From positions 558,001-622,000 of the forward strand of contig NW_019028988.1 of the NCBI RefSeq assembly GCF_002105155.1: DNA of 64,000 nucleotides. Direction: 5' to 3'. A program made the translations under genes and the position numbers. Of the stretch, positions 2,243-60,308 are shown piece by piece. The notes below the pieces were generated by a model. The model searched no databases and was not told the origin of the DNA. It saw nothing but the letters and a program-made list of their open reading frames with translations. Position 1 is the stretch's first letter. The number at the start of each line of letters is the position of its first letter. This DNA is from Lobosporangium transversale. Lineage: Eukaryota.

Positions 2243-4522
2243 CTATTCACCTTGTGATCCTGATAAGGGATCGGTCAGGCCAGCAACAGGAACAGGAGAA
2301 GACGAAGACATGCTCGACATGAGTGGATGTGTGGGCATTACTGAAGTCGACGGCATGGAAGTATATCCTCCATGATGATTGTGCAGCATATGCGAATTAT
2401 TACCCGCTACCTTGGTCTCATATGACGTGTGATGATACGGCTGAGGATGATGAAGATGTGAACTATCCTCGTTCGAGGGTGGCGAAGGTGAATATTGAAG
2501 ATCAGGATCTGCACTGTGCATACTATGCGGGAACTGCAGAGTCTTTAGGTCAGTATCCGAATGGTATGCTTGATGATGAAAAGAATCGGTCGAGTATGAA
2601 CTCGATGTCAATGCATCATGTTGCTGTTGATGCTGATGTTGTTGATGATGGTGGTGGTGATGTTGTTGTTGGAGACCGTTGGAGGATTCTGAAGAAAATC
2701 CTGAGGACATTACTGGCATGAAATGTGTAGATATGGATGTAGGGAAAGAGAAGTGGTCGTACTGAGGCATGGGTGATGAGCGAGGGGATTCACCATTAGG
2801 GTTTTGAGTCGACATCAATCCTTCAGATGAACCTTCCTCTACATATTTGTGAACATCAGCAGGGGCCACAGACTTGAGATCCAGACGGATTGTGTCGAAC
2901 CGTGGAACCATGTTGCCCAGTGGGTCCAAGTGATCTAATGAGTACATAGGGCCATTTCCGAACGAGTAGTTGGGGTGACCAACCATATCGAACGACTCGT
3001 CATCATTCATGGAGGATGTGCCCATGGCGGATGAGGGCCGGGCCGAGGATGCATCGCCAGGGGATGTAGGAGGTGAATGATCCCGACTATACTCAGATGC
3101 ATCTTGATTGACCGAGTTTGAATTGTAGCCACTGGAAAGATGGAGTGACGAATGGGGCATGAATGGCGCCATGCCTGTGGAAGTTGACTGATCCGCTGAA
3201 GAGATCGAGGACGACGATGTCTGTGAGGAATCATGCGATTCTTGTTTAATACCACCATCACCAGTGTTATTGTTATTAGTACCTCCGCTCTCTAAACTGC
3301 GGTTGTCGTATCGACGCGCCAAAGCCTTCTTGGAATGTGTTCGCAAATGGGCTGAAAAGTTATCTGAGCGACTAAATGACTTGTTGCATCCCGTAAAGTC
3401 GCATTGGAAGGGACGTTCCTTGGTATGGACTAACATGTGTCTCTTCAGATGCTCATATCTCTTGAAGCTCCATTCACAGCTTGGGAACTTGCATGGGTGC
3501 TTGTTATTCGAGCCACTACCTGTAGAAGATACCGAAGTAGTAGAGCAGATCGAATTGTTGCGCTTCACTTTACTACTGCCACGAATCGCTCCGGTCGTTG
3601 AGTGATGTGAGAGCCCTCCTGATCCACCTGCTCCACCGTTAGGACCATTCTGTGTGTTATTGTTCATGGACTTGCCACCAGAGATGAAGCTATCTGGCAT
3701 GGGGGATGAGCAGTTGGACGAGTTAACGGAGGGGATGACTTGGTTTAACGAATGTTGCTGCACATGGAGCTGTTGTTGGTGTTGATGCTGTTGTTGGAGT
3801 AAATGCTGATGAGAGAACTGTGTTCGGTAATAGTGCATCGTCGCTGGATCCAAATGATGGAGAACAGGGGATGGGACACCGAGGACATTATTCATCGAAC
3901 CACCCATCATGCTGGACGGAGGGGTGAGTGATGACCAGGATCCCTGTCGTTGCATGTGCTTCTCCTCGGAGGCTTTGCGCTTATGTTCTGCTTGATCGGC
4001 AGTTAGGATTGGGACCGAGTTCCTTCTGAAGGGTTCATAAAGACTTGTATTGTGGCCATGCATGGCCAAGAATGAGGGTGGTACAGCGGTGTTGGGAGCA
4101 GCAGCGTTGGGAAACGAAGGAGAAGAGGGGGCAGATAAGGGACCAATAGGCGTGTTGGGTGAGAAGATCGGGTTACTGGAGCTGCTATTGCCACTCATGC
4201 CGTTGGTGAATCCAACGGATGCGGATGGTGTGTTGTACATGGTATTGCCAGTACTTTGGAAATGTTGAAGAGAGTGAGTAGTGGACATGGAAAGAGGATG
4301 GGGAGCAGTGACGGATCGAAGGGTCGCGCTGCTCTTGCTCCCTTTCAATGGTGCTGGCCGCTGTTTGATTCCCAAAGGCATAGAGGTAGTAGTGGAAATG
4401 GGTGATGATGACATGGCCATGCTAATGCTCATCGCCATATCTTCTTGCTTAATATCATCCTCTGGGGAAGTTGGACGCATCCACTGACTGCACGGCTGGG
4501 TTGATTCTGAGGAAGTATCCAT
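2243..4522 (-). CDS. C2H2 zinc-finger transcription factor (two fingers, SteA/Msn2-SebA-like finger pair)
   Basis: [55 protein letters not shown], with S/H/Q-rich low-complexity flanks. Likely start MDTSSES at 4522; the upstream part of the 810-aa ORF looks intronic/UTR. Confidence 0.9.
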
Positions 4523-4659
4523 TGTGGAATTGCACTCGACTGCAACTGTAAACACAAACAAAGAAGTAAAAAAAGAAAGAAAGAGATGAGCATGTGAGTG
4601 GAAAACCAAAAAGTTTCCTTTTCTTGAGCAAAGGATGGAAGAGGCAAACAGACAAAGTA

Positions 4660-4696: not shown

Positions 4697-5972
4697 AGTA
4701 AACTAGTGATTGGACTAGTTATGCATGTGTATGTCAGCAAATCAGAAAGGAAAGGGAAAAGAGCTTTGGCCTTACCAGTGCTCTCGGCCATTACCCTGAC
4801 GACAACAACAAGAAAAAAAAAATAAAATAAAATAAAATCGACGTTTGTTTTACGTGTCTGAAGGAATAAAAGGCTCTGACAGATGGTTTTTTTTGTTGCA
4901 GAGATATTTATAAGGGGCAGGGTCAATGCAAAATGATGGATGGGTGAATGAATGTGACCAAAGTACTGTTTTACTGTTTTAGAATAAAGAAAATAACAGG
5001 GAGTTCATGCAAAAAGAATATAAATGATCTAGTTAGTACAAATAAATCAATACATTTGTTGAAGTACTTTGAGCAATAAAATAGAGATGTGGTCTGACTC
5101 GAATGGACGTCAAAAGAGGGAGGGGATCTGGAGTGGTAATGTAATACAGTAGGGCATACCAAAAACACCTCCACAGAAACCTTTTTTTTTTTTAGCATGC
5201 TCTTTAAAACATGGCAGATGTTTCTTTGCCCTGTTCTTTCTTGAGCATTTTCCGTGATCAGAAAAAGGAGGAGGGGGTGGAAGTTGGGAGATATTTAGAG
5301 ATGCGACCACAGAGTATACAATAAAGAATGAGGGGGGGAAGGGAAGTGAATAAAAAAAAAAAAAGGAAAATAGGGGAGTATCCTTCTTGCTAGAAGTGTT
5401 GTGTGCGGCAATTTCTTTGCTCACTTCGCCACCTCGAAATGCAGGGCTGATTGCAAACACTGACCACGTCGCACCAAAAAAAAAAAAAAAAAAAAAAAAG
5501 GTATGTATCAGGCGCTTGTGAGGATTAGTGAAAAGATGCACAGAAGAGGTAGCTTAAGAAAAAAGATAAAAGAAATGGTGTGACTCCTCCAGTAGATTGA
5601 CGCATGATATCTGAAGCGAATTGGCAAAAATGATAATTAAGCACGATAGTGATAAAAAAAAAAAGCATCTTGTCCAGAAAAGATTACAAAAAACAAGGAA
5701 ATGTTTGGTACTACCAATGTAAAACAGGAATGAAAGGAAAAGAAGGGACGAAGGCAAAAGGGAGGGGGAAAAAGTGGACAGGGCAGATGACAGTGAAGAA
5801 AGAGCCCTAAGGATTGTGTAACTCTATAATTCAGCCGTATTGTCAAGGAAGTTGTGTTTCAAGCAGTTATTACATGGATCAGAGGAACAGCACCTGTCAG
5901 GTCCTGAAGACTTGGATTTGTAAGATTGAGTTATTTAAGAAGGGGAGGAAGGAGCCAGAGGGGATGTCAGTA

Positions 5973-28418: not shown

Positions 28419-31361
28419 ATGCCCTCAGACCGACAAAGATCACAATCTGTGGAGCGGAGCTTTAGTCAGCAGGAGACGTATTCTTCTGAACATCAATATC
28501 AAACTCGAGACGATTGGGCAAGTCGCCGTGATACAAACATCCATTCACATTCACGGGCATCACAGCTACGTAGATCATCACCTTATTATATCGAACAGCA
28601 AGAAGATTGTCGTTATACACAGCACCATGACTCGTACTACGGCGAAAATGAGCCAGAATATCGCAACAGCAGCCACCACTACTTAAATGGATACAACGAT
28701 CATGTTCCATACTCAATAAGCAACACGGGCTCTTTTGAGGAACACTATAGTGCTAATGTAATGATGAGAAGTGAACATATGGCTGAGAATGGCAATATTC
28801 GACTGGACAGTGCTAACCAAAACAATCATAACAGTAACACCCTGCATCACTCTACCATCGCCAGCAATAATGGTATCCTGATGGGCAAGCATCGTAACAA
28901 CTCAATCTCATCCAACACTAGCTCCAACAACTCATCCTCATGCTCAGTCAATAAGCATCCCTGCAAGTTCCCAACGTGTGGCTGGAGCTTCAAAAGATTT
29001 GAACACTTGAAAAGACACATGCTTGTCCATACAAAGGAGCGACCGTTCGTTTGTGAGTTTCAAGGATGCGAAAAGTCTTTTAGTCGGTCTGATAACTTTT
29101 CGGCTCATTTGCGTACTCATACCAAGAAATCGATACATATGCGTAAACCCGATCGTCATATGATGGGTCCTATAGGTTTTATGCCAATGGGCATGGGCGA
29201 TGGACACATTACGGGCTCTAACACGACTGTAAGAGCCCCATCATATGGAGCAGAAGCAGGTATGACAACACCAGGAGGGATGATGAACTCCAGTCACTCC
29301 GGAATGGCAAGCCCACGATCATCTCCTGGGTCGACCCAGATTGATGCTGCTTCCAATGGTGGCACACCAGGTAAATTATCATACTGTATCACTTTTTTTT
29401 TTTTTTTTTTTTTTTTTTGTTGACTTAATCCGTAGCATAAGGAATGAAAGTGAACCTGTCTAACACAATGTAATAACGCTTTGACAGTTCATGTGAACTC
29501 CCGTAGGGCACCATCTCATTGTCTACGTGCAACATCCGCTGACTATCACAAAAGGGCTGAGTATGAGACCTCACCATCAACGCCGACATCATTATCACAC
29601 AGCTCATTAGATAGTCAATATCGTCGCCAATATCATCACCAACGTTCACAAAGCTCTTCAGATGTGCATCCATATGACGCTCGTTCAGCAACAGCAAATT
29701 CTCTTGTAAAGCCAGAGCCAAGGAGCTCCTCTCCTAAATCAGTTTATGCCGGGTCAGCCATCTCTGAAATGGAATCAACAAAGTCAGCACTAGTATTAGC
29801 AACATCAAAAGCCAGCTCCAAGAACAACAGCAATAACGTTGATAACAAGAATGTACCAACATTCAACGCCATCAAATTGGATATTAAAGCTGTGTCGAAC
29901 AACCCTGATGACGTTCAACTACATAATCAACATAACTTAATGATGGAGTCTTTCCACGCTCAGGCAGCAGAGCATGAGCGAGACTTTGATCACTATCGTG
30001 GATCTCCTGGCCGTCGGAAGCCAGTGCATCGCCCATTCGATGCAGATCAACATAACCGTCATCACCCAATCCTTAGACCTCGGTCACTCAGTCCCCCATC
30101 CTCTCTTTCTTCACGCTGGGAGCCCAATGTAAATGATCATCACTACCACGACCAGCACGGTTTAACTCTGTATGAAGCTGGTCATAACGGGCCCAATCCC
30201 AACCCTAATGGCGAATCTCCTACGCAGCCTAACAGAGCGACTTTGTCCAATAACAACATGTCGATGCCATTTGCATCTCATTTCGTACCATCGAATGAAA
30301 TGTCTGACCGTCGTAATGGAGGCTACGGCTCTATGATGCATAGTGAAGGCGAAGAGGATATTGACTATGATGGCGCAGACAGGCTATCAAGGGATCAAAA
30401 GAAGAGTGGTGACAAGGCAGATTTCTATAAGCCGACTCATCATCTCTCGCATGGCATTTACGAGTCTGTCCCTTCATTCCAACTACCAGCACGAAGCCAT
30501 CCAGATGGGCGTATGGACTCAGTACCTATATCCATGGACGAAGATGAAGATCCTATGCGCTCTCCCGCCAGAGATTGGCATATAGCAGAGGGATACAGTG
30601 GACCATCATCCTATCCGGATTATCCTCATCATCGCCATTCGTTTTCGGAATATAAAGTTGACCATTCCTCTGTGGCTGATAGTCGATCCCATGCAGGCCC
30701 AATGATGTCTCCAAACAGGATGCATGTATCTTTGTCGTCATCATCCTTATCGTCTTTGACTTTGCCTAGTCCCGGCAGCCAACAGCAGCAAAATCGATAT
30801 CAGCATCATCATCGTTCACAATCGGAGCAGTACTATTCGACTTATCCTCACCATATACCACTTTCGATGCAGACTTCTATGGTCCCCAGCAATAACCAAC
30901 ACTCCATGATGATGGGTGTAGGGGAAAGTGAAGCAGTAGCAGTCATGATGCCGGGAGTTCATCCGGGGCGGATGCGTGGATCGGCTTCGTCTGCCAAGAA
31001 CCATTGCTGCTCTGTGCCAGGGTGCATGAAGCGATTCAAGCGGCTGGAGCATTTGAAGCGCCATATCAAGACTCACACATTAGAACGGCCCTTTGCCTGC
31101 ACAATGCCGGGATGTAACAAGCGATTCTCGCGTTCTGATAATCTCTGTAAGTATAACTTTATTCATAACAAAACACCTACTTCTGAACGGCACTTTGGCC
31201 TAGTTTCCTTTTCTTTTAGTAGTAAACACCTATTGACATAAAAAAAAAATACTTTCTCCTTAATAGCCCAACATACCAAGACGCATCAACGTCAAATCAT
31301 GAACAAATCGCACTGGAAGCAACGAGCGAGCTTGTCGAGCATGTCAAGCATGTTTGAGTAA
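28419..31361 (+). CDS. C2H2 transcription factor with two separate finger pairs; exons 28419-29370, 29488-31146, 31267-31361
   Basis: Pair 1: [55 protein letters not shown]. Pair 2: CSVPGCMKRFKRLEHLKRHIKTHTLERPFACTMPGCNKRFSRSDNL|SQHTKTH, completed by the spliced third exon. Confidence 0.9.
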
Positions 31362-49661: not shown

Positions 49662-50272
49662 TGAGAGTGCCGCTCTAGGCTACCAAGAAAAGGTTAAAAA
49701 AAAAAAAAAAAAGTAATGAAAGAATGCAAGGCAAGAGCAAACATTTTTAGCAGCCCCAAATGTGACGCCCCGAAAACCATGTCATAATCAGGACGCGACC
49801 TTTTTTTTTCTTTTTTAGCGCACTAAACAAATGGTCACGATAATAGATATCACAGTATGGAGAAGGAAAGCATGGTTCTCAATTTCATTTATTGTCCTAC
49901 ATATTGGGTGGACAATAATCTATAATGGATTATGATGCCAAATCCAGCCCTTTTTCCATTTAAGGGTATTATGTTTCATGTCTGTACGTACAAGACATGT
50001 GTCCGTTTTGTGGCTTTTACTCCGACACTTGTCCTGAAATTTGAATTGACATCAAATCCATCGAAATTTTAACAATGTCATCATGGCATGCTAAAGATCT
50101 CTTTCTTTCTTCTTTATTTTACGCCTTCATTCCTCCATACATTCATATACACAATAAAACAATAAAACCTACAATACACAGAGTAGACTTGCCCTCTCCC
50201 CTGACTAAAACTGAGAAAAATAACGGCACATTCGCATTTTCAAAGGTTCATTCCTGCTTGCTCACTTTCAAA

Positions 50273-53200
50273 ATGACAAACAACAACGAAAAGATTTTAT
50301 CCAATTTCACCTGCATGGATTTGGAACAAAGCACCAGTCAGACGAAGCCAACCAAGTCAAGTACTCGCACTGGATCCACTCGTGCAGCACCGAGGAGAAA
50401 AAGAGTTATTCTGACTGACGAAACGACTCCAGAGCCTTCACCAGTGGCACAGACTGCTAGAGTTAGTGCAAAGTCTTTTAAGCGCCCTAGGCGTTGTGAG
50501 GCTGATTCTTTATCCTCAAATGTCCTTCACTCCGGTCCATTGACAGAAGAAGAGCTGGCCCTGGCGAACGCACGGAAGGAGTCGGCGAGAAGTGTGCTGC
50601 AGATGATTTTAGATGATCCAGATTCATCGACGACAGTGAATCAATATAAGACACAGCTCCGGCTGTGGGAGGTATGTTGGATCATCAAAATGTCGCTATG
50701 AGCTATCTCAGACAGGCTATCAAACTAGACGACTTGGCTAATTCTCTTTTTTGTTTTTAGCAATACTGCAATGAAAATTATCAAGGTGACTGTAGCGTCG
50801 ATGCGAAACGCATGCTTGAATACTTCACAACGGTTGTCTTCAAGCGAACAGTAAAGCGATTGATCGGCACAGATCGTTGCTACCGTGGCGCTATTGGGTA
50901 TGCCCAGCAGGGTGGAGGAGATTCTTCGAATTCTCAGGCTGGGGAAGACGCAGTCTATGAGGGAGAAGAGATCGACGAATTAGTCGAGGCAGATATCGAC
51001 GAACATGAACTAAGCGACATGGAGCAGAGACTGGAGACATTAGATAACAGCGAGCAAGTTGATGACGACGACGGCCAAAGCATAGACCAAGGTCAACAAC
51101 AGGGACAGGGTCAGGGACAGGGTCAGGAACAGGATCAGGAACGGAGACAGGGTCAGGGACAGGGACAGGAACAAGGACAGGAACAGGAACAGGATGAAGA
51201 TCTGGAGCTTCAGCTGAGGTCATTGGCACAGAGAGGTAAGAAGGCTCCTCCCTCCTGGGATAATATGGAGCCACCTGAAGGAGTCGACCCACATCAATGG
51301 CAGATTGATATAGCATTGAATGATGAGGAGCGAGCATCACATGAAGCTGTAACTGTTGGGGGTTCAAGCAAGAACATCACGCCGAAGCGGAAGACTGCAG
51401 CCGTTATCAGGACTGAAAATGAAAGAGAACAAGGTATGTAAAGATAACCATGTATTAATATATAAATTGTTATACAGTACTGGGATCCAAACCTTTGGGA
51501 AGGCTCCGCCATCACGCGTACCCCAGGTGACAAGACACCATGGCCGCAACTCAGTGTTAATTATCAATATAAATAGCCTACTAAATTATGACTTAATAAA
51601 CCATTCCTTAATCCTGCATCCACCTTAATGTATCTTTGATTGTTACAATTTACACTAATGGTTGATACTTTTTATTATATATACAATTACTTTTTTTTTT
51701 TTTTTTTTTTTTTTTTGGATATACTTTTGCGTTTGTAGTTATCCTGCAAGCACCAGAGGACAAACATGGCAGCAAAATTGTCTTTGTTCCTCTCACGCTG
51801 GGGACAGTCGCAAATGTTAAGAAGGCTTTGCAATACTTATGGAGGCAACAGTCTTCTTCGACAGCTCCGTATCCCAATCCCGCCCCAAACCCAAGAACGG
51901 ATGTACCACTAGCGGAGGCGATCAAAAATTATGGAGAGAAACTTGTCCATCACAAAGTAACGACAGGCACCTTATCCCGCACTGCCACCTGTGCCGTACG
52001 AGAACCTTACAACACTAAAATGTACCTGCGTATGTTGGCCTTTACATGGCGCATGCTTCCGACGGTTGGAGTAAGCGGCAGGCGACCTTACGACAGTGTT
52101 ACAAGATTTCAGTATATGAGGGAGAGGCTATGCCTCCTTGCACGCCATCATATGTTGCTGCGGGATGAGGACATCCGAAACTTGAACCTGGCTAACACAT
52201 TCAATATTCAGACCCGTCACCCCGCGCCAGGGTCAAAGCTGGCGTCGGGGCTTGTCTTCTGCATCACACGTGGAAAGACAAACCATAAAGGTGTCGAACT
52301 CTATGCGACAGCTTATCGACATAAGCTGTTCTTAAGGTGCACCGTGGGCGGGTTTGCATTTTATATGCTAGAACGGTTCCAGGTAAATGATGCCGTCAGT
52401 CTTGACGCGAGCGTATGATTTTTTCTCATTCAATTACACAAAGTGACATATATCCTTATTTTTTTTTTTCCCTATTGTAGGTGTTCAAGGAGCCTCTTCC
52501 CAATTTTGCGGACCCTGACGAGTGGTACAGCATCAAGGTGCTAACAGGGGGTGGAACAAGCCAAGAACGGTTAGAGAACCGAAAGGAAGCGCTTGTTGGC
52601 CGAACCCAAATGAGCACTACGGCGGCTGTAATGCGTGCCTGCGACGTGCATTCGGCCAAAATTACGCACTCTGGCCGACATGCAGGGGTCTCGGAAGCCT
52701 ACGAAAGAGGCTTAAGCCTGGACGATATTCGCCACTTGGGAAGGTGGGTCATGGGGCAAATGGAGAACTTCTATGCTCCAAAAAACCCAACCAGGGGCGC
52801 TTTTTGTATGGCTCAGTTTGGACCGAATGAGCCTTACTTTATCGAGCGTGATTTGGTCACCCCGCCCTTAGAGCTCCAGCGTCTGGTCTTTCCTTGGATT
52901 GAGGAAAATTTTGATAAAGATATGCCGGAGAGAGCTGACTCCTGGAGAGAGGAGTGCGCCAAAGAAATGCTGGGGGTCGATCCAAATGTCCCGACAGACG
53001 AAGACATTTTTTGGACGCCAATCGAGAAGAAGACGAGCTCGAAACGATTGACCCGTGCCTTCAGCACTGACTCCCTTGTTACACGCATTGGGTTCCTCAA
53101 ACTTCTTGTGCGTATGAGGCGAGTAATCCTTCAGGATGCAGTGCTCTTTTTGAAGCCGAACGACAAGGGGAAAATGTTGGAGAACAAACTCCTCGAGTCG

Positions 53201-54109
53201 TTACCAGAAATCTTTGGTTGCCAGCTCTTTCTGGATTTCCAACATCAATTGCTTCGGGCCATCGACGTACATCGCCGACAAGCAGGCATCATCCAAGCGG
53301 ATGTGCCAGTTAATGCGCAAACTATGGTAAGCGCCATTAACACGTTGTCGGTAGAGGCGCGGGTCTTTCATCAACTCCAGCATGAGACGGTCCAGAAGCT
53401 CGAGGCCCTATCCACCCTTGTGACAGAGCAACAGGAGCAACAGAGGCAGCAACAGGAGCAAATCCACTTACTTCTCCAATCGCTGCAGCAGCAACAAAGC
53501 GCAAATGTGCGGCAGCCTTTTCCATATCATGTGCAGTCTTGCCCGCCCTTTGTGTTTAATCCTTCTCCATTGGCGCCAGCACAGAGCCGCCTAGCTTCTT
53601 TTCCTTCGGTTCCTCAGGCTCCTACTACGCAGGGTCTATATCAAGCTCGCCAGGCCACTCCACCGCAACAGCAGCCATTATTTTCCAACCAATTGCCACC
53701 ATGTCCTCAGCAACAGCCATATCAACATAGCCATGTGCAGGCTCCAATGACCTCAGAGCAGACACAACGATTGCCGGAAGATGAAAGGTATAAAGGCTAC
53801 CTCATGAAAGGCGATGGCAAGCAATTGACGGTCAGGGAAGCATGGGATGAATTCCGTGGGCCCGTTGCTCAGGCAAAGCAGGAAAATCACAAATGGCCAT
53901 TCACAGAGGCGCGTCACAAGGCATTCAGGCGCAGGCGTCAAATTTTCGATCTGATAAAGAATATTGCCGAAAAACAGAAGCGAGACTTCGAAGAGGTAGT
54001 AGACGCACTGACAGCTCAGTACAAGGGTCGGACAATCAATTCCATTCGACTAGAGCTTCTGAAAGACACCGGGAATGACGAAGGCTGCCACCAAGATGCG
54101 GACGAGTAG
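50273..54109 (+). CDS. Crypton tyrosine recombinase (NDC10_II-like YR plus GCR1_C-like domain), copy 1; exons 50273-50671, 50761-51433, 51739-52382, 52481-54109 (1114 aa)
   Basis: Exon lengths sum to 3345 nt, in frame. Catalytic motifs LLRDEDIR (R), RGKTN (K), KITHSGRHAG (HxxR), HLGRW (W) and MENFY (Y). C-terminus YLMK..LTVREAWDEF..KW..AFRRRRQIFDLI is GCR1_C-like. Start codon is uncertain. Confidence 0.9.
51088..51193 (+). repeat. Hexamer repeat (CAGGGT/CAGGGA/CAGGAA) encoding a GQ/EQ tract in the recombinase; also at 55855-55960
   Basis: QGQQQGQGQGQGQEQDQERRQGQGQGQEQGQEQEQ. Confidence 0.85.
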
Positions 54110-54543
54110 ATGAGTAAGGGTAATTTTTTTTTTTCTTTTTTTTTTTTATATATACATATATATATATCCTCGGATACAAATTTAAGCAATAAAGCACAAA
54201 GTAGTGATGGTGTCGGAAATACCAAGACATGAACTGAGCTACAAGAGGCAGAAAACTGTTGGCTGCATCCTTGAGCCAAAAGAGGCTGAGAAAATACAAT
54301 GTACAAGCAATCCATTGTCGTGAAATTTGTGATATTCCAAGGTGTTTAGCATAAGTATCATCCAGGAAAAAGCATTATCGTCAACATTATTAACAAGACA
54401 AAACACCATCAAAGCACTATCAAAGCATTTTTGACTCGACTCGGCTACCAACGCACTATAACAGAAATAATTGAATACTTCATCAATATAAAAACTGTCA
54501 TGTTTAATCATTAACACTGTCTCTACCATAAAAAGATTTTGTC

Positions 54544-54594
54544 TATTTCGCTTCACAAATCCATTTTGTGGAAAAAGATTTGTGAAGCGAAATA
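54544..54594. repeat. 18-bp perfect inverted repeat with 15-bp spacer near the element right end (also 59296-59346)
   Basis: TATTTCGCTTCACAAATC (54544-54561) / GATTTGTGAAGCGAAATA (54577-54594). Confidence 0.95.
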
Positions 54595-54620
54595 TAAAAA
54601 TTTTGTGACTTGGTATCCTT

Positions 54621-54667
54621 CTGTGTCCACCTGTGTCCGCCTGTGTCCATCTGAATGGACACAGGTG
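54621..54667. repeat. Three 10-bp-spaced CTGTGTCC direct repeats plus one inverted copy forming an 11-bp hairpin (also 59373-59419)
   Basis: ctgtgtccac ctgtgtccgc ctgtgtccat ctga atggacacaggtg. Confidence 0.95.
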
Positions 54668-54683
54668 AGCAATTTCGTTTCAC

Positions 54684-56427
54684 AATCTATAATGGATTAT
54701 GATGCCAAATCCAGCCCTTTTTCCATTTAAGGGTATTATGTTTCATGTCTGTACGTACAAGACATGTGTCCGTTTTGTGGCTTTTACTCCGACACTTGTC
54801 CTGAAATTTGAATTGACATCAAATCCATCGAAATTTTAACAATGTCATCATGGCATGCTAAAGATCTCTTTCTTTCTTCTTTATTTTACGCCTTCATTCC
54901 TCCATACATTCATATACACAATAAAACAATAAAACCTACAATACACAGAGTAGACTTGCCCTCTCCCCTGACTAAAACTGAGAAAAATAACGGCACATTC
55001 GCATTTTCAAAGGTTCATTCCTGCTTGCTCACTTTCAAAATGACAAACAACAACGAAAAGATTTTATCCAATTTCACCTGCATGGATTTGGAACAAAGCA
55101 CCAGTCAGACGAAGCCAACCAAGTCAAGTACTCGCACTGGATCCACTCGTGCAGCACCGAGGAGAAAAAGAGTTATTCTGACTGACGAAACGACTCCAGA
55201 GCCTTCACCAGTGGCACAGACTGCTAGAGTTAGTGCAAAGTCTTTTAAGCGCCCTAGGCGTTGTGAGGCTGATTCTTTATCCTCAAATGTCCTTCACTCC
55301 GGTCCATTGACAGAAGAAGAGCTGGCCCTGGCGAACGCACGGAAGGAGTCGGCGAGAAGTGTGCTGCAGATGATTTTAGATGATCCAGATTCATCGACGA
55401 CAGTGAATCAATATAAGACACAGCTCCGGCTGTGGGAGGTATGTTGGATCATCAAAATGTCGCTATGAGCTATCTCAGACAGGCTATCAAACTAGACGAC
55501 TTGGCTAATTCTCTTTTTTGTTTTTAGCAATACTGCAATGAAAATTATCAAGGTGACTGTAGCGTCGATGCGAAACGCATGCTTGAATACTTCACAACGG
55601 TTGTCTTCAAGCGAACAGTAAAGCGATTGATCGGCACAGATCGTTGCTACCGTGGCGCTATTGGGTATGCCCAGCAGGGTGGAGGAGATTCTTCGAATTC
55701 TCAGGCTGGGGAAGACGCAGTCTATGAGGGAGAAGAGATCGACGAATTAGTCGAGGCAGATATCGACGAACATGAACTAAGCGACATGGAGCAGAGACTG
55801 GAGACATTAGATAACAGCGAGCAAGTTGATGACGACGACGGCCAAAGCATAGACCAAGGTCAACAACAGGGACAGGGTCAGGGACAGGGTCAGGAACAGG
55901 ATCAGGAACGGAGACAGGGTCAGGGACAGGGACAGGAACAAGGACAGGAACAGGAACAGGATGAAGATCTGGAGCTTCAGCTGAGGTCATTGGCACAGAG
56001 AGGTAAGAAGGCTCCTCCCTCCTGGGATAATATGGAGCCACCTGAAGGAGTCGACCCACATCAATGGCAGATTGATATAGCATTGAATGATGAGGAGCGA
56101 GCATCACATGAAGCTGTAACTGTTGGGGGTTCAAGCAAGAACATCACGCCGAAGCGGAAGACTGCAGCCGTTATCAGGACTGAAAATGAAAGAGAACAAG
56201 GTATGTAAAGATAACCATGTATTAATATATAAATTGTTATACAGTACTGGGATCCAAACCTTTGGGAAGGCTCCGCCATCACGCGTACCCCAGGTGACAA
56301 GACACCATGGCCGCAACTCAGTGTTAATTATCAATATAAATAGCCTACTAAATTATGACTTAATAAACCATTCCTTAATCCTGCATCCACCTTAATGTAT
56401 CTTTTGATTTTGTAAATTTTTACTTTT

Positions 56428-56469
<42 letters not shown>

Positions 56470-59443
56470 GATATACTTTTGCGTTTGTAGTTATCCTGCA
56501 AGCACCAGAGGACAAACATGGCAGCAAAATTGTCTTTGTTCCTCTCACGCTGGGGACAGTCGCAAATGTTAAGAAGGCTTTGCAATACTTATGGAGGCAA
56601 CAGTCTTCTTCGACAGCTCCGTATCCCAATCCCGCCCCAAACCCAAGAACGGATGTACCACTAGCGGAGGCGATCAAAAATTATGGAGAGAAACTTGTCC
56701 ATCACAAAGTAACGACAGGCACCTTATCCCGCACTGCCACCTGTGCCGTACGAGAACCTTACAACACTAAAATGTACCTGCGTATGTTGGCCTTTACATG
56801 GCGCATGCTTCCGACGGTTGGAGTAAGCGGCAGGCGACCTTACGACAGTGTTACAAGATTTCAGTATATGAGGGAGAGGCTATGCCTCCTTGCACGCCAT
56901 CATATGTTGCTGCGGGATGAGGACATCCGAAACTTGAACCTGGCTAACACATTCAATATTCAGACCCGTCACCCCGCGCCAGGGTCAAAGCTGGCGTCGG
57001 GGCTTGTCTTCTGCATCACACGTGGAAAGACAAACCATAAAGGTGTCGAACTCTATGCGACAGCTTATCGACATAAGCTGTTCTTAAGGTGCACCGTGGG
57101 CGGGTTTGCATTTTATATGCTAGAACGGTTCCAGGTAAATGATGCCGTCAGTCTTGACGCGAGCGTATGATTTTTTCTCATTCAATTACACAAAGTGACA
57201 TATATCCTTATTTTTTTTTTTCCCTATTGTAGGTGTTCAAGGAGCCTCTTCCCAATTTTGCGGACCCTGACGAGTGGTACAGCATCAAGGTGCTAACAGG
57301 GGGTGGAACAAGCCAAGAACGGTTAGAGAACCGAAAGGAAGCGCTTGTTGGCCGAACCCAAATGAGCACTACGGCGGCTGTAATGCGTGCCTGCGACGTG
57401 CATTCGGCCAAAATTACGCACTCTGGCCGACATGCAGGGGTCTCGGAAGCCTACGAAAGAGGCTTAAGCCTGGACGATATTCGCCACTTGGGAAGGTGGG
57501 TCATGGGGCAAATGGAGAACTTCTATGCTCCAAAAAACCCAACCAGGGGCGCTTTTTGTATGGCTCAGTTTGGACCGAATGAGCCTTACTTTATCGAGCG
57601 TGATTTGGTCACCCCGCCCTTAGAGCTCCAGCGTCTGGTCTTTCCTTGGATTGAGGAAAATTTTGATAAAGATATGCCGGAGAGAGCTGACTCCTGGAGA
57701 GAGGAGTGCGCCAAAGAAATGCTGGGGGTCGATCCAAATGTCCCGACAGACGAAGACATTTTTTGGACGCCAATCGAGAAGAAGACGAGCTCGAAACGAT
57801 TGACCCGTGCCTTCAGCACTGACTCCCTTGTTACACGCATTGGGTTCCTCAAACTTCTTGTGCGTATGAGGCGAGTAATCCTTCAGGATGCAGTGCTCTT
57901 TTTGAAGCCGAACGACAAGGGGAAAATGTTGGAGAACAAACTCCTCGAGTCGTTACCAGAAATCTTTGGTTGCCAGCTCTTTCTGGATTTCCAACATCAA
58001 TTGCTTCGGGCCATCGACGTACATCGCCGACAAGCAGGCATCATCCAAGCGGATGTGCCAGTTAATGCGCAAACTATGGTAAGCGCCATTAACACGTTGT
58101 CGGTAGAGGCGCGGGTCTTTCATCAACTCCAGCATGAGACGGTCCAGAAGCTCGAGGCCCTATCCACCCTTGTGACAGAGCAACAGGAGCAACAGAGGCA
58201 GCAACAGGAGCAAATCCACTTACTTCTCCAATCGCTGCAGCAGCAACAAAGCGCAAATGTGCGGCAGCCTTTTCCATATCATGTGCAGTCTTGCCCGCCC
58301 TTTGTGTTTAATCCTTCTCCATTGGCGCCAGCACAGAGCCGCCTAGCTTCTTTTCCTTCGGTTCCTCAGGCTCCTACTACGCAGGGTCTATATCAAGCTC
58401 GCCAGGCCACTCCACCGCAACAGCAGCCATTATTTTCCAACCAATTGCCACCATGTCCTCAGCAACAGCCATATCAACATAGCCATGTGCAGGCTCCAAT
58501 GACCTCAGAGCAGACACAACGATTGCCGGAAGATGAAAGGTATAAAGGCTACCTCATGAAAGGCGATGGCAAGCAATTGACGGTCAGGGAAGCATGGGAT
58601 GAATTCCGTGGGCCCGTTGCTCAGGCAAAGCAGGAAAATCACAAATGGCCATTCACAGAGGCGCGTCACAAGGCATTCAGGCGCAGGCGTCAAATTTTCG
58701 ATCTGATAAAGAATATTGCCGAAAAACAGAAGCGAGACTTCGAAGAGGTAGTAGACGCACTGACAGCTCAGTACAAGGGTCGGACAATCAATTCCATTCG
58801 ACTAGAGCTTCTGAAAGACACCGGGAATGACGAAGGCTGCCACCAAGATGCGGACGAGTAGATGAGTAAGGGTAATTTTTTTTTTTCTTTTTTTTTTTTA
58901 TATATACATATATATATATCCTCGGATACAAATTTAAGCAATAAAGCACAAAGTAGTGATGGTGTCGGAAATACCAAGACATGAACTGAGCTACAAGAGG
59001 CAGAAAACTGTTGGCTGCATCCTTGAGCCAAAAGAGGCTGAGAAAATACAATGTACAAGCAATCCATTGTCGTGAAATTTGTGATATTCCAAGGTGTTTA
59101 GCATAAGTATCATCCAGGAAAAAGCATTATCGTCAACATTATTAACAAGACAAAACACCATCAAAGCACTATCAAAGCATTTTTGACTCGACTCGGCTAC
59201 CAACGCACTATAACAGAAATAATTGAATACTTCATCAATATAAAAACTGTCATGTTTAATCATTAACACTGTCTCTACCATAAAAAGATTTTGTCTATTT
59301 CGCTTCACAAATCCATTTTGTGGAAAAAGATTTGTGAAGCGAAATATAAAAATTTTGTGACTTGGTATCCTTCTGTGTCCACCTGTGTCCGCCTGTGTCC
59401 ATCTGAATGGACACAGGTGAGCAATTTCGTTTCACAATCTATA
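54684..59443 (+). mobile_element. Crypton unit 2 (4752-bp period), tandem head-to-tail copy
   Basis: Bounded by AATCTATA at 54684-54691 and 59436-59443. Translated ORFs are identical to unit 1; the only difference seen is in the poly-T region of intron 2. Confidence 0.9.
55040..58861 (+). CDS. Crypton tyrosine recombinase, copy 2; exons 55040-55438, 55528-56200, 56491-57134, 57233-58861
   Basis: ORF translations identical to copy 1. Confidence 0.9.
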
Positions 59444-59559
59444 GCAGATTGGGGAGGGTGTGAGGCATGATACAAATATAGGGGAAAAAAAAAAGAAAAC
59501 GGATTTTTTTTTTTGCAAAGAGGTTCAAAGAAGGTTGAAATGTACACGGCGGGATTATT

Positions 59560-60308
59560 TTACAACGTCCACTGTTGGATGTCCTCGGCGGTCGTGACCG
59601 TTCTAAGGAGAGAGAGGTTTATAAAAAGCAGTTTAGTATTTGCCATAAAATTTTTTTACAGGATGCAATTGCTCAAGATGGTTCTAGTGACATACTTCAC
59701 AAAATCTAGCGGGTATTCTTTTCGTAGCAAATTGGCCAACACCTTGCCGGGACCAAATGAAATATAGTCATGCACATTTTGTTGGTCTCGCAAGTATCCG
59801 ATACTTGTGTGCCATTGAACAGCTCCCGTAACCTGTCGCACAAGCAAATCTGAGATATCCTCAATCTTTGTGATCTGTGTTTTGAAAATGGTCATAGAGT
59901 ATCAGATTATTTAGTCCTCCGTTTTGTGTTCTTTATCCCATTGCCAATTTTGACAGAGCCACTTACAGGTCTTGCTGTAACATTTGAAATCACATCGATA
60001 GTTGGCTTTTTGAATTGAATATCTTTGAGTGCCTCTTTCATTGCATCTGCTGCAGACTGCATTAGACTACAATGAAAGGGTGCTCTATAAGAAAATAAGC
60101 GTATAAAGAAGTGGTAATCAGTACAACCAGAGGACTAAGCTTCTCAACTTTTTGGGTACGCAGGAAATAAGGAGATGTCGGTCAAAAGACATACGAGACA
60201 GGAAGATCTACAGCGCGTGCTGCAATCTTTTGTGCTTGAAGAACTCTTGATGCATGGTCGACCCCTCGGACTGTGCCGCTGATCACAACTTGAAATGACT
60301 AAAATTTG

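Follow-up and report, generated by a model that had tools for sequence, protein, structure and literature searches.

Probable core-type and arm-like recombinase sites at the ends of a CryptonF element from Lobosporangium transversale

The repeats crowded into the right end of a CryptonF element of Lobosporangium transversale are best explained, with a probability of about two-thirds, as two predicted classes of double-stranded DNA site for the element's own recombinase: half-sites of the crossover core, and arm-like sites with the consensus YRTGTCC. The element lies in a 64,000-nt stretch of genomic DNA, here called the window. A first-pass annotation of the window had proposed two classes of predicted protein-binding site, resembling the core and arm sites of phage lambda, and a comparison of related ends for conserved motifs versus covarying structure. 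In three close relatives, this comparison came out for the motifs, whose sequences and helical spacing recur, whereas the hairpins do not. The literature search returned no description of such Crypton ends; Goodwin et al. 2003, Gomar-Alba et al. 2015, Repbase and subscription papers lay outside it. The element as such is an ordinary, intact CryptonF, and the new part is its end architecture.

The element, its gene and its relatives

The window holds two copies of a 4.77-kb element in the form of a head-to-tail dimer (Table 1). The joints for introns 1 and 2 of the recombinase gene are present in contigs of run X7 (assembled contigs of one probable RNA run, which shows spliced joints), and intron 3 is called from GT..AG and the reading frame only. 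NDC10_II, the tyrosine recombinase (YR) family, matches on two exons (E 9e-11 and 4e-5), and we located in the protein the R (LRDED), HSGRH, W (LGRW) and Y (FYAP) residues, which we take to be catalytic. The C-terminus carries a GCR1_C domain that scores 26 bits in isolation (Pfam cutoff 23) and 22.9 on the whole exon. This domain matches at E≤0.01 in 6 of 20 aligned proteins and is weak in relatives, with E of 0.06–0.09 in two of four and no match in the other two. No second gene was recognised inside the element, self-BLAST revealed neither terminal inverted repeats nor long terminal direct repeats between its ends, and the four exon frames contained no reverse transcriptase families. The assignment to CryptonF follows from the YR and GCR1_C protein, the short target-matching terminal repeat, the lack of terminal inverted repeats, long terminal repeats and reverse transcriptase, and the multicopy state, and fits the group as defined in the accessible part of Kojima and Jurka 2011 (PMC3212892).

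Contig depth, a rough guide, places the element at ~19–21 times the host flanks in runs X1, X3 and X4, and other insertion flanks are present as well. These DNA runs probably represent one strain, given the flanks that they have in common. An internal-deletion derivative that has lost ~52746–54236 and kept the last 455 bp occurs in three of four runs (X1, X3 and X7), with a depth in X1 and X3 of ~5 times that of the host; without the catalytic tyrosine and GCR1_C, it is a candidate non-autonomous family. The variant copy in X7 shows nine substitutions in the kept 455 bp, all of them outside its last 215 bp (p about 0.003), which is weak evidence for constraint because the first 139 bp are likewise clean.

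A total of 27 relatives were found, almost all of the named ones in Mortierellaceae, and none in the viral and prokaryote sequence collections. A metagenome scan yielded 13 related loci (L001–L013). Tail counts refer to eight tails, delimited from the stop codon alone, with the window among them; six of the 13 loci were excluded, namely L001, L003, L007, L008 and L012 (no tail) and L009 (a duplicate of L010). Three close relatives have a right end (L002, L004 and L006), and only in L006 are the ends independently defined; those of L002 and L004 were placed by eye, partly using the TGTCC motif, and are to that extent circular. A left end of L003 placed by a shared TGTA was dropped, as the contig, judged by global alignment, stops ~13 nt short of the core, and this removed the support for the L002 end. 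A four-way alignment of the right ends of the window element and the three relatives was uninformative and misplaced the window sequence. Two further features were seen among these loci: a ~180-bp palindromic, MITE-like sequence in two copies inside a related Crypton gene (L001:90–285 and 1049–1246), and a TCGAAT-rich repeat tract, which lies upstream in L012 (45–480) and directly adjoins the right end of L006 (4742–4769).

Table 1. Features of the CryptonF element and its ends, in window coordinates
Feature	Position	Strand	Remarks
CryptonF copy 1	49917..54691	+	span counts the core at each end; 99.4% identical to copy 2
CryptonF copy 2	54684..59443	+	head-to-tail with copy 1; every right-end motif recurs at +4752
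Recombinase gene	50273..54109	+	exons 50273-50671, 50761-51433, 51739-52382, 52481-54109; 1114 aa, frame open
AATAAA poly(A)-type signal	54188..54193	+	~350 nt upstream of the structured end
ATCAAAGCA tandem	54408..54429	+	probably incidental
Subterminal core-like half-site 1	54544..54561	+	half-site with an A added; forms the left inverted-repeat arm
Subterminal core-like half-site 2	54577..54594	-	inverted, 15 bp from site 1
Three arm-like CTGTGTCC sites	54621..54648	+	10-bp period
Fourth arm-like site	54657..54664	-	inverted; pairs with the third site to give the 11-bp 'hairpin'
Right-end core half-site, 16 bp	54672..54687	+	arm of the junction dyad
Core direct repeat AATCTATA	54684..54691	+	6 bp common to flanks, ATCTAT (54685-54690)
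7-bp spacer, predicted strand-exchange region	54688..54694	+	only the first 3-4 bp match targets
Left-end core half-site, 16 bp	54695..54710	-	12/16 complementary to the right half-site; second copy at 49928-49943
Left-end arm-like sites	54746..54801	.	GACA-NN-TGTC pairs at 54760-54771 and 54790-54801; single site at 54746

The core and its terminal dyad

When the right and left ends are joined, they form a dyad of the recombinase type, with two 16-bp half-sites around a 7-bp spacer (16-7-16) and symmetry at 12 of 16 positions, a value that is reached with this spacer at 3 of 54,566 non-low-complexity positions of the window. The 8-mer stands at all three element junctions; its inner hexamer is common to every flank seen, four left and two right, indicating that the true core is 6 bp.

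A motif-free end finder, which seeks the direct repeat with the best 16-7-16 symmetry, ranked the true ends first of 1396 candidates in the window. In L006 it placed first, out of 431, a pair of AGTCTA, which occurs there exactly twice, once per end. The dyad of L006 is symmetric at 11 of 16 positions and its inner arms covary with those of the window (AATC/GATT in the window, AGTC/GACT in L006). In L010 and L011 the finder gave nothing clear; as a rule for Crypton ends, a direct repeat plus a 16-7-16 dyad worked on two of the four sequences tried.

A half-site profile built from the window sites alone was then run on the relatives. In L006 its three best hits are, in order, the right half-site at 4722, a subterminal +1 copy at 4607 and, on the minus strand, the left half-site at 98; in L004 subterminal +1 copies rank first and third; the terminal half-site of L004 and all L002 sites are missing from the top five. 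The 16-bp half-sites are predicted to bind the tyrosine-recombinase part of the protein. Read on the minus strand, the left half-site has ATTTGGC in its outer part, near the CATTTGGC element of Hot1 (Bai et al., in the accessible part of PMC4462951); the half-site might be bipartite, with an outer part that is also read by GCR1_C.

Subterminal half-sites

The perfect 18-bp inverted repeat upstream of the core is present as first described, with a spacer of 15 nt and an imperfect extension to 54533–54604. Its stem exceeds the longest perfect stem in 200 shuffles (at most 12 bp) and in 186 host windows (at most 15 bp). The recurrence of TTCACAA, which had been listed as a separate feature, is real (54552 and 54679, with TTGTGAA at 54580 and TTGTGA at 54603) but was under-called, in that the motif is a 14–17-nt half-site: each 18-bp arm is a consensus-like copy of the terminal half-site with one extra A. 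By local alignment, a subterminal half-site is significant in two of four ends (window 0/300, L004 1/300), the values for the others being 31/300 in L006 and 83/300 in L002. The tails of L002, L004 and L006 contain no inverted repeat of this kind, and the inverted doubling of the half-site is probably lineage-specific; for this doubling alone, a neutral origin comes somewhat close to an even chance.

A tandem of ATCAAAGCA had been reported further in, near 54408–54429; its units do lie there, at 54408 and 54419, but it is not beyond chance, a comparable tandem turning up in 29 of 186 host windows. It is absent from the tails of relatives, both of its units are substituted in the X7 variant copy, and it probably stands outside the site system.

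Arm-like TGTCC sites

Closer to the core, CTGTGTCC occurs three times (54621, 54631 and 54641), and an 11-bp stem (54640–54650/54655–54665, loop CTGA) ends 18 nt before the core, both as originally noted. As a right-end feature the TGTCC repeat is confirmed, but it too was under-called, since TGTCC sites are found in the left end as well. The left-end sites, repeated in copy 1 at 49979–50034, are shared with the left region of L003. The window element, L003 and L006 all carry sites of this type in the left end, so that the joined element has TGTCC sites on both sides of the core.

The last 100 nt of the element contain four TGTCC/GGACA sites, a number reached by none of 1000 shuffles and none of 5435 overlapping host windows (maximum 2). 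Across the eight tails GGACA/TGTCC is the top non-homopolymer 5-mer, second only to poly-A; it is enriched in three of them (window, L002 and L004) and not in L005, L006, L010, L011 and L013. The last 100 nt of L006 hold one exact site, which 234 of 1000 shuffles reach. From 34 sites in eight end regions we derived the consensus YRTGTCC. Of 43 same-orientation pairs, 36 have a spacing in helical phase, as do 18 of the 21 neighbouring ones, compared to 25 of 71 in coding controls; these counts are not independent because the arrays expand by slippage. GGACA lies 33–35 nt from the end in all four right ends, of which those of L002 and L004 were set by eye using the motif. The orientation of the array is reversed in L002 and L004 and its period is 11 bp in L002, as expected for sites on double-stranded DNA.

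Such repeats could also be neutral, arising by slippage or template switching near a recombination-prone end, so that only the 6-bp core and the adjacent half-sites would matter. The perfect inverted repeat is missing in all three close relatives, the L002 array is a perfect, slippage-like 11-bp tandem, and the spacing pairs are interdependent, all of which suits this explanation. Nevertheless, we consider it improbable for the end as a whole: the same 5-mer recurs in otherwise unalignable tails and in left ends, in L006 and L004 the subterminal half-site varies along with the terminal site of the same element, and, as a weak additional point, the last 215 bp of the X7 variant carry no substitution.

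GCR1_C as the candidate arm-site binder

According to the accessible part of PMC3212892, the yeast genes for Msn1, Hot1 and Gcr1 are GCR1_C genes domesticated from CryptonF. The protein-binding microarray (PBM) motifs of Msn1 are ATTTGTCC and RAATGTCC (PMC3334620, from supplementary file 6). The C-terminus of Hot1 binds GGGACAAA-related sites, as the title of a cited paper states, and Bai et al. mapped Hot1 to CATTTGGC repeats (PMC4462951, accessible part); the preference of Gcr1 is GGAAGC. The TGTCC of the element is the core of the Msn1 motif and is compatible with the Hot1 motif, with an Msn1 match that covers the 5–6-bp core only; the base preceding TGTCC is mostly G in the element and T or A for Msn1. 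The Gcr1 preference and the CATTTGGC repeats of Hot1 imply that the motif of the family is not fixed. From the match to the Msn1 and Hot1 motifs we infer that the phased TGTCC sites are the predicted targets of the element's GCR1_C domain. A PDB sequence search with A1 gave no match at E<0.05.

Lambda-type systems use host factors, as lambda does with IHF. The phased sites could similarly be bound by an IHF-like bending or architectural factor of the host instead of GCR1_C, and the restriction of the Msn1 match to a 5–6-bp core is in keeping with this. We regard a host factor as the least probable reading of those considered here, given that the top motif found de novo is the GCR1_C-family core, a coincidence of ~1% by a rough estimate from 512 5-mer classes and 3–4 family motifs, and that the repeated motif common to L010 and L011 is another one, CCGTTC, which co-evolution of the motif with the element protein would predict. 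The tails of this distant clade (~30% protein identity; L010:4380–4525 and L011:4895–5038) have conserved motifs of their own, namely CCGTTC repeats 9–10 bp apart, GTTTCACATA, TCACGTG and TACCGATACTG, and L011 contains a perfect 16-bp palindrome of TTTCACA sites.

Gcr1, Msn1 and Hot1 are transcription activators. This opens a further possibility, that TGTCC arrays bound by GCR1_C act mainly in transcription: at a circle or tandem junction the start codon of the recombinase gene follows the right end by ~600 bp, and the right end would serve as an enhancer or operator for autoregulation. The domesticated GCR1_C genes include these three, a Q/P-rich linker precedes the GCR1_C domain of the recombinase, and junction contigs amount to about one-third of right-end depth (see below). 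Moreover, circularisation, which juxtaposes the ends, raises recombinase expression in Starship elements, according to the accessible part of a preprint (bioRxiv 10.64898/2026.09.21.753150). As the main function this is unlikely, because the near-fixed 33–35 nt to the core and the presence of sites on both sides fit a synapse better than an enhancer, and the extra core-like half-sites are left unexplained; a transcriptional role can, however, coexist with the two site classes of the recombinase.

Folding of the right end

The first-pass annotation had offered a structured 3' ncRNA as an alternative, and the same fold could be an integron-like single-stranded DNA substrate with two hairpins. 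The right end of the window element does fold very stably (z of −8.6 and −9.3). In the relatives, the last 182 nt give z of −0.8 (L002), −2.0 (L004) and +0.3 (L006) on the plus strand and −2.3, −1.9 and −0.6, respectively, on the minus strand. Their tails, which cannot be aligned, have no stem of at least 9 bp and no shared stems, and no conserved structure with covariation was found among the three. All 12 Rfam matches are far below the gathering scores, and the motif array flips strand between relatives. In an attC site the crossover core is not outside the hairpin, whereas here it lies outside both. The AATAAA signal lies ~350 nt upstream of the structured end; it occurs within 80 nt after the stop codon in seven of the eight tails, well upstream of the motifs, and one X7 contig ends at 54207, just past AATAAA (a single weak hint). 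In X7 the tail has no contig of its own, and the only one over the right end is a spliced contig that runs on from the neighbouring host gene; we give this no weight, as absence cannot be read from contigs. For the C-terminal domain, a four-helix model with pLDDT 79 matched nothing in Foldseek at E≤0.001 and reached at most Z 5.2 in VIA; its best structural neighbours are ANTAR-type antiterminator proteins, which would speak for a folded strand, with Z of 5.0–5.2 and rmsd of 4.3–5.5 that fall inside the noise for helical bundles.

As the hairpins are not conserved in the three relatives, a structured ncRNA is unlikely, and we judge a functional folded strand of either kind very improbable. Both 'hairpins' are likely by-products of inverted pairs of the two predicted site classes. 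A sigma-70 scan, irrelevant to a fungus, was at chance level.

Junctions and flanks

Contigs that join element end to element end (54661–54713) reach 0.32–0.38 of right-end depth in X1, X3 and X4. At 52–53 nt they are below our rule of 31 letters per side, their depth is not a copy number, and tandems and circles are indistinguishable in them; they imply frequent tandem arrays or circles, probably for the most part chromosomal tandems.

In the two right flanks seen, the first four and the first three of the seven spacer bases match the target; full identity of donor and target overlap, the lambda criterion, was not found. The proposal that every target carries the inner AATC..GATT dyad was rejected, as it holds in one of the two right flanks.

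In the host flank immediately to the left of the insertion (49890–49918), two TGTCC-type sites, TTATTGTCC ... GGACAATAA, form an inverted pair of 9 bp. Two such sites within 40 nt occur in 1 of 1361 other host windows, but TGTCC is missing from the 30 nt seen of each of the three other left flanks. The pair could favour this target. Run X7 too has an element copy at the right flank of this insertion. In one spliced X7 contig, 300 nt of other host sequence continue into the left end of the element (49918–51110); in a second, the host gene on the right is spliced and connected to the right end of the element (58989–60195). Read-through from host genes in both directions is possible.

Discussion

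In the descriptions of CryptonF accessible to us (PMC3212892 and, for the active CryptonF-1_cRei, PMC9977147), the group shares with our element the single YR and GCR1_C protein, the 6-bp target-matching terminal direct repeat, the lack of terminal inverted repeats, a length of ~4.8 kb, the multicopy state and non-autonomous deletion derivatives. For the ends, these descriptions give a terminal repeat of 4–9 bp only, whereas here a 16-7-16 dyad, phased arrays, subterminal half-sites and frequent head-to-tail junctions are added. The accessible literature model of Crypton mobility rests on a 4–6-bp repeat and gives no role to GCR1_C.

Among prokaryotic systems, the attP site on which lambda Int acts combines core-type and arm-type sites. 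Like lambda attP and the CTnDOT site of IntDOT, the element has, at the level of sequence, a 7-bp spacer between core-type sites in inverted orientation, a further class of site flanking the core on both sides and a recombinase with a second, in our case predicted, DNA-binding domain. It differs in its eukaryotic gene with introns, in a second domain that is a C-terminal GCR1_C rather than an N-terminal arm-binding domain, in the lack of a recognised excisionase gene, in targets that are degenerate 6-mers and in the extra core-like sites inside the arm. With IntDOT it shares spacer identity with the target that is confined to one side (PMC2817482, accessible part). Starship elements are likewise fungal YR elements with a joined-end form, but belong to another YR family and size class, and their junction reads are rare (36 versus 6,959 end reads; bioRxiv 10.64898/2026.09.21.753150, accessible part), compared to the ratio of 0.32–0.38 for junction contigs of our element.

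Combining these parallels with the two predicted site classes leads to a broader proposal, which we advance tentatively and rate slightly below even odds: CryptonF ends would constitute an attachment site of the lambda style in a eukaryote, served by a single protein, with the YR on the 16-7-16 core and on uncut accessory half-sites, GCR1_C on phased TGTCC sites on both sides, a Msn1/Hot1 motif inherited from the arm site of a transposon ancestor, and head-to-tail junctions as the attP-like form. In the main reading, that of two site classes for the element's own recombinase, one YR protomer would occupy each core half-site, while GCR1_C domains would hold the phased TGTCC sites and thereby bend the ends around into a synapse like that of lambda. 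The left part of the spacer, which matches the target, would be exchanged first, with mismatch tolerated in the rest, as with IntDOT; tandem arrays and new insertions as well as excised circles could result. Recombinase may also bind the subterminal half-sites without cleaving them, in an architectural or damping role. Clean excision and copy gain have been reported for CryptonF-1_cRei (PMC9977147, accessible part).

The TGTCC core of Msn1 and the GGGACAAA-related motif of Hot1 match the core of the repeated site, which suggests that the specificity of these yeast proteins descends from a transposon end. The yeast proteins differ in being host regulators without an active YR, in the bases that flank TGTCC and, for Gcr1, in the motif itself. 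An intact element at ~20 copies, on which core, arm-like and accessory sites are now mapped, opens the mechanism to direct tests that need no more than short oligos and a mini-element. Its recombinase, which is compact, eukaryotic and has a target of 6 bp, could also prove useful as a tool.

Two minor observations concern the window itself. Intron 3 of the recombinase gene (52383–52480) is apparently retained in the same X7 contig that splices intron 2, and regulated splicing of this intron could restrict the production of full-length recombinase. A dispersed inverted repeat pair of 179 bp, unrelated to the Crypton, lies at 3327–3505 and 28950–29128, with 79% identity between the two units.
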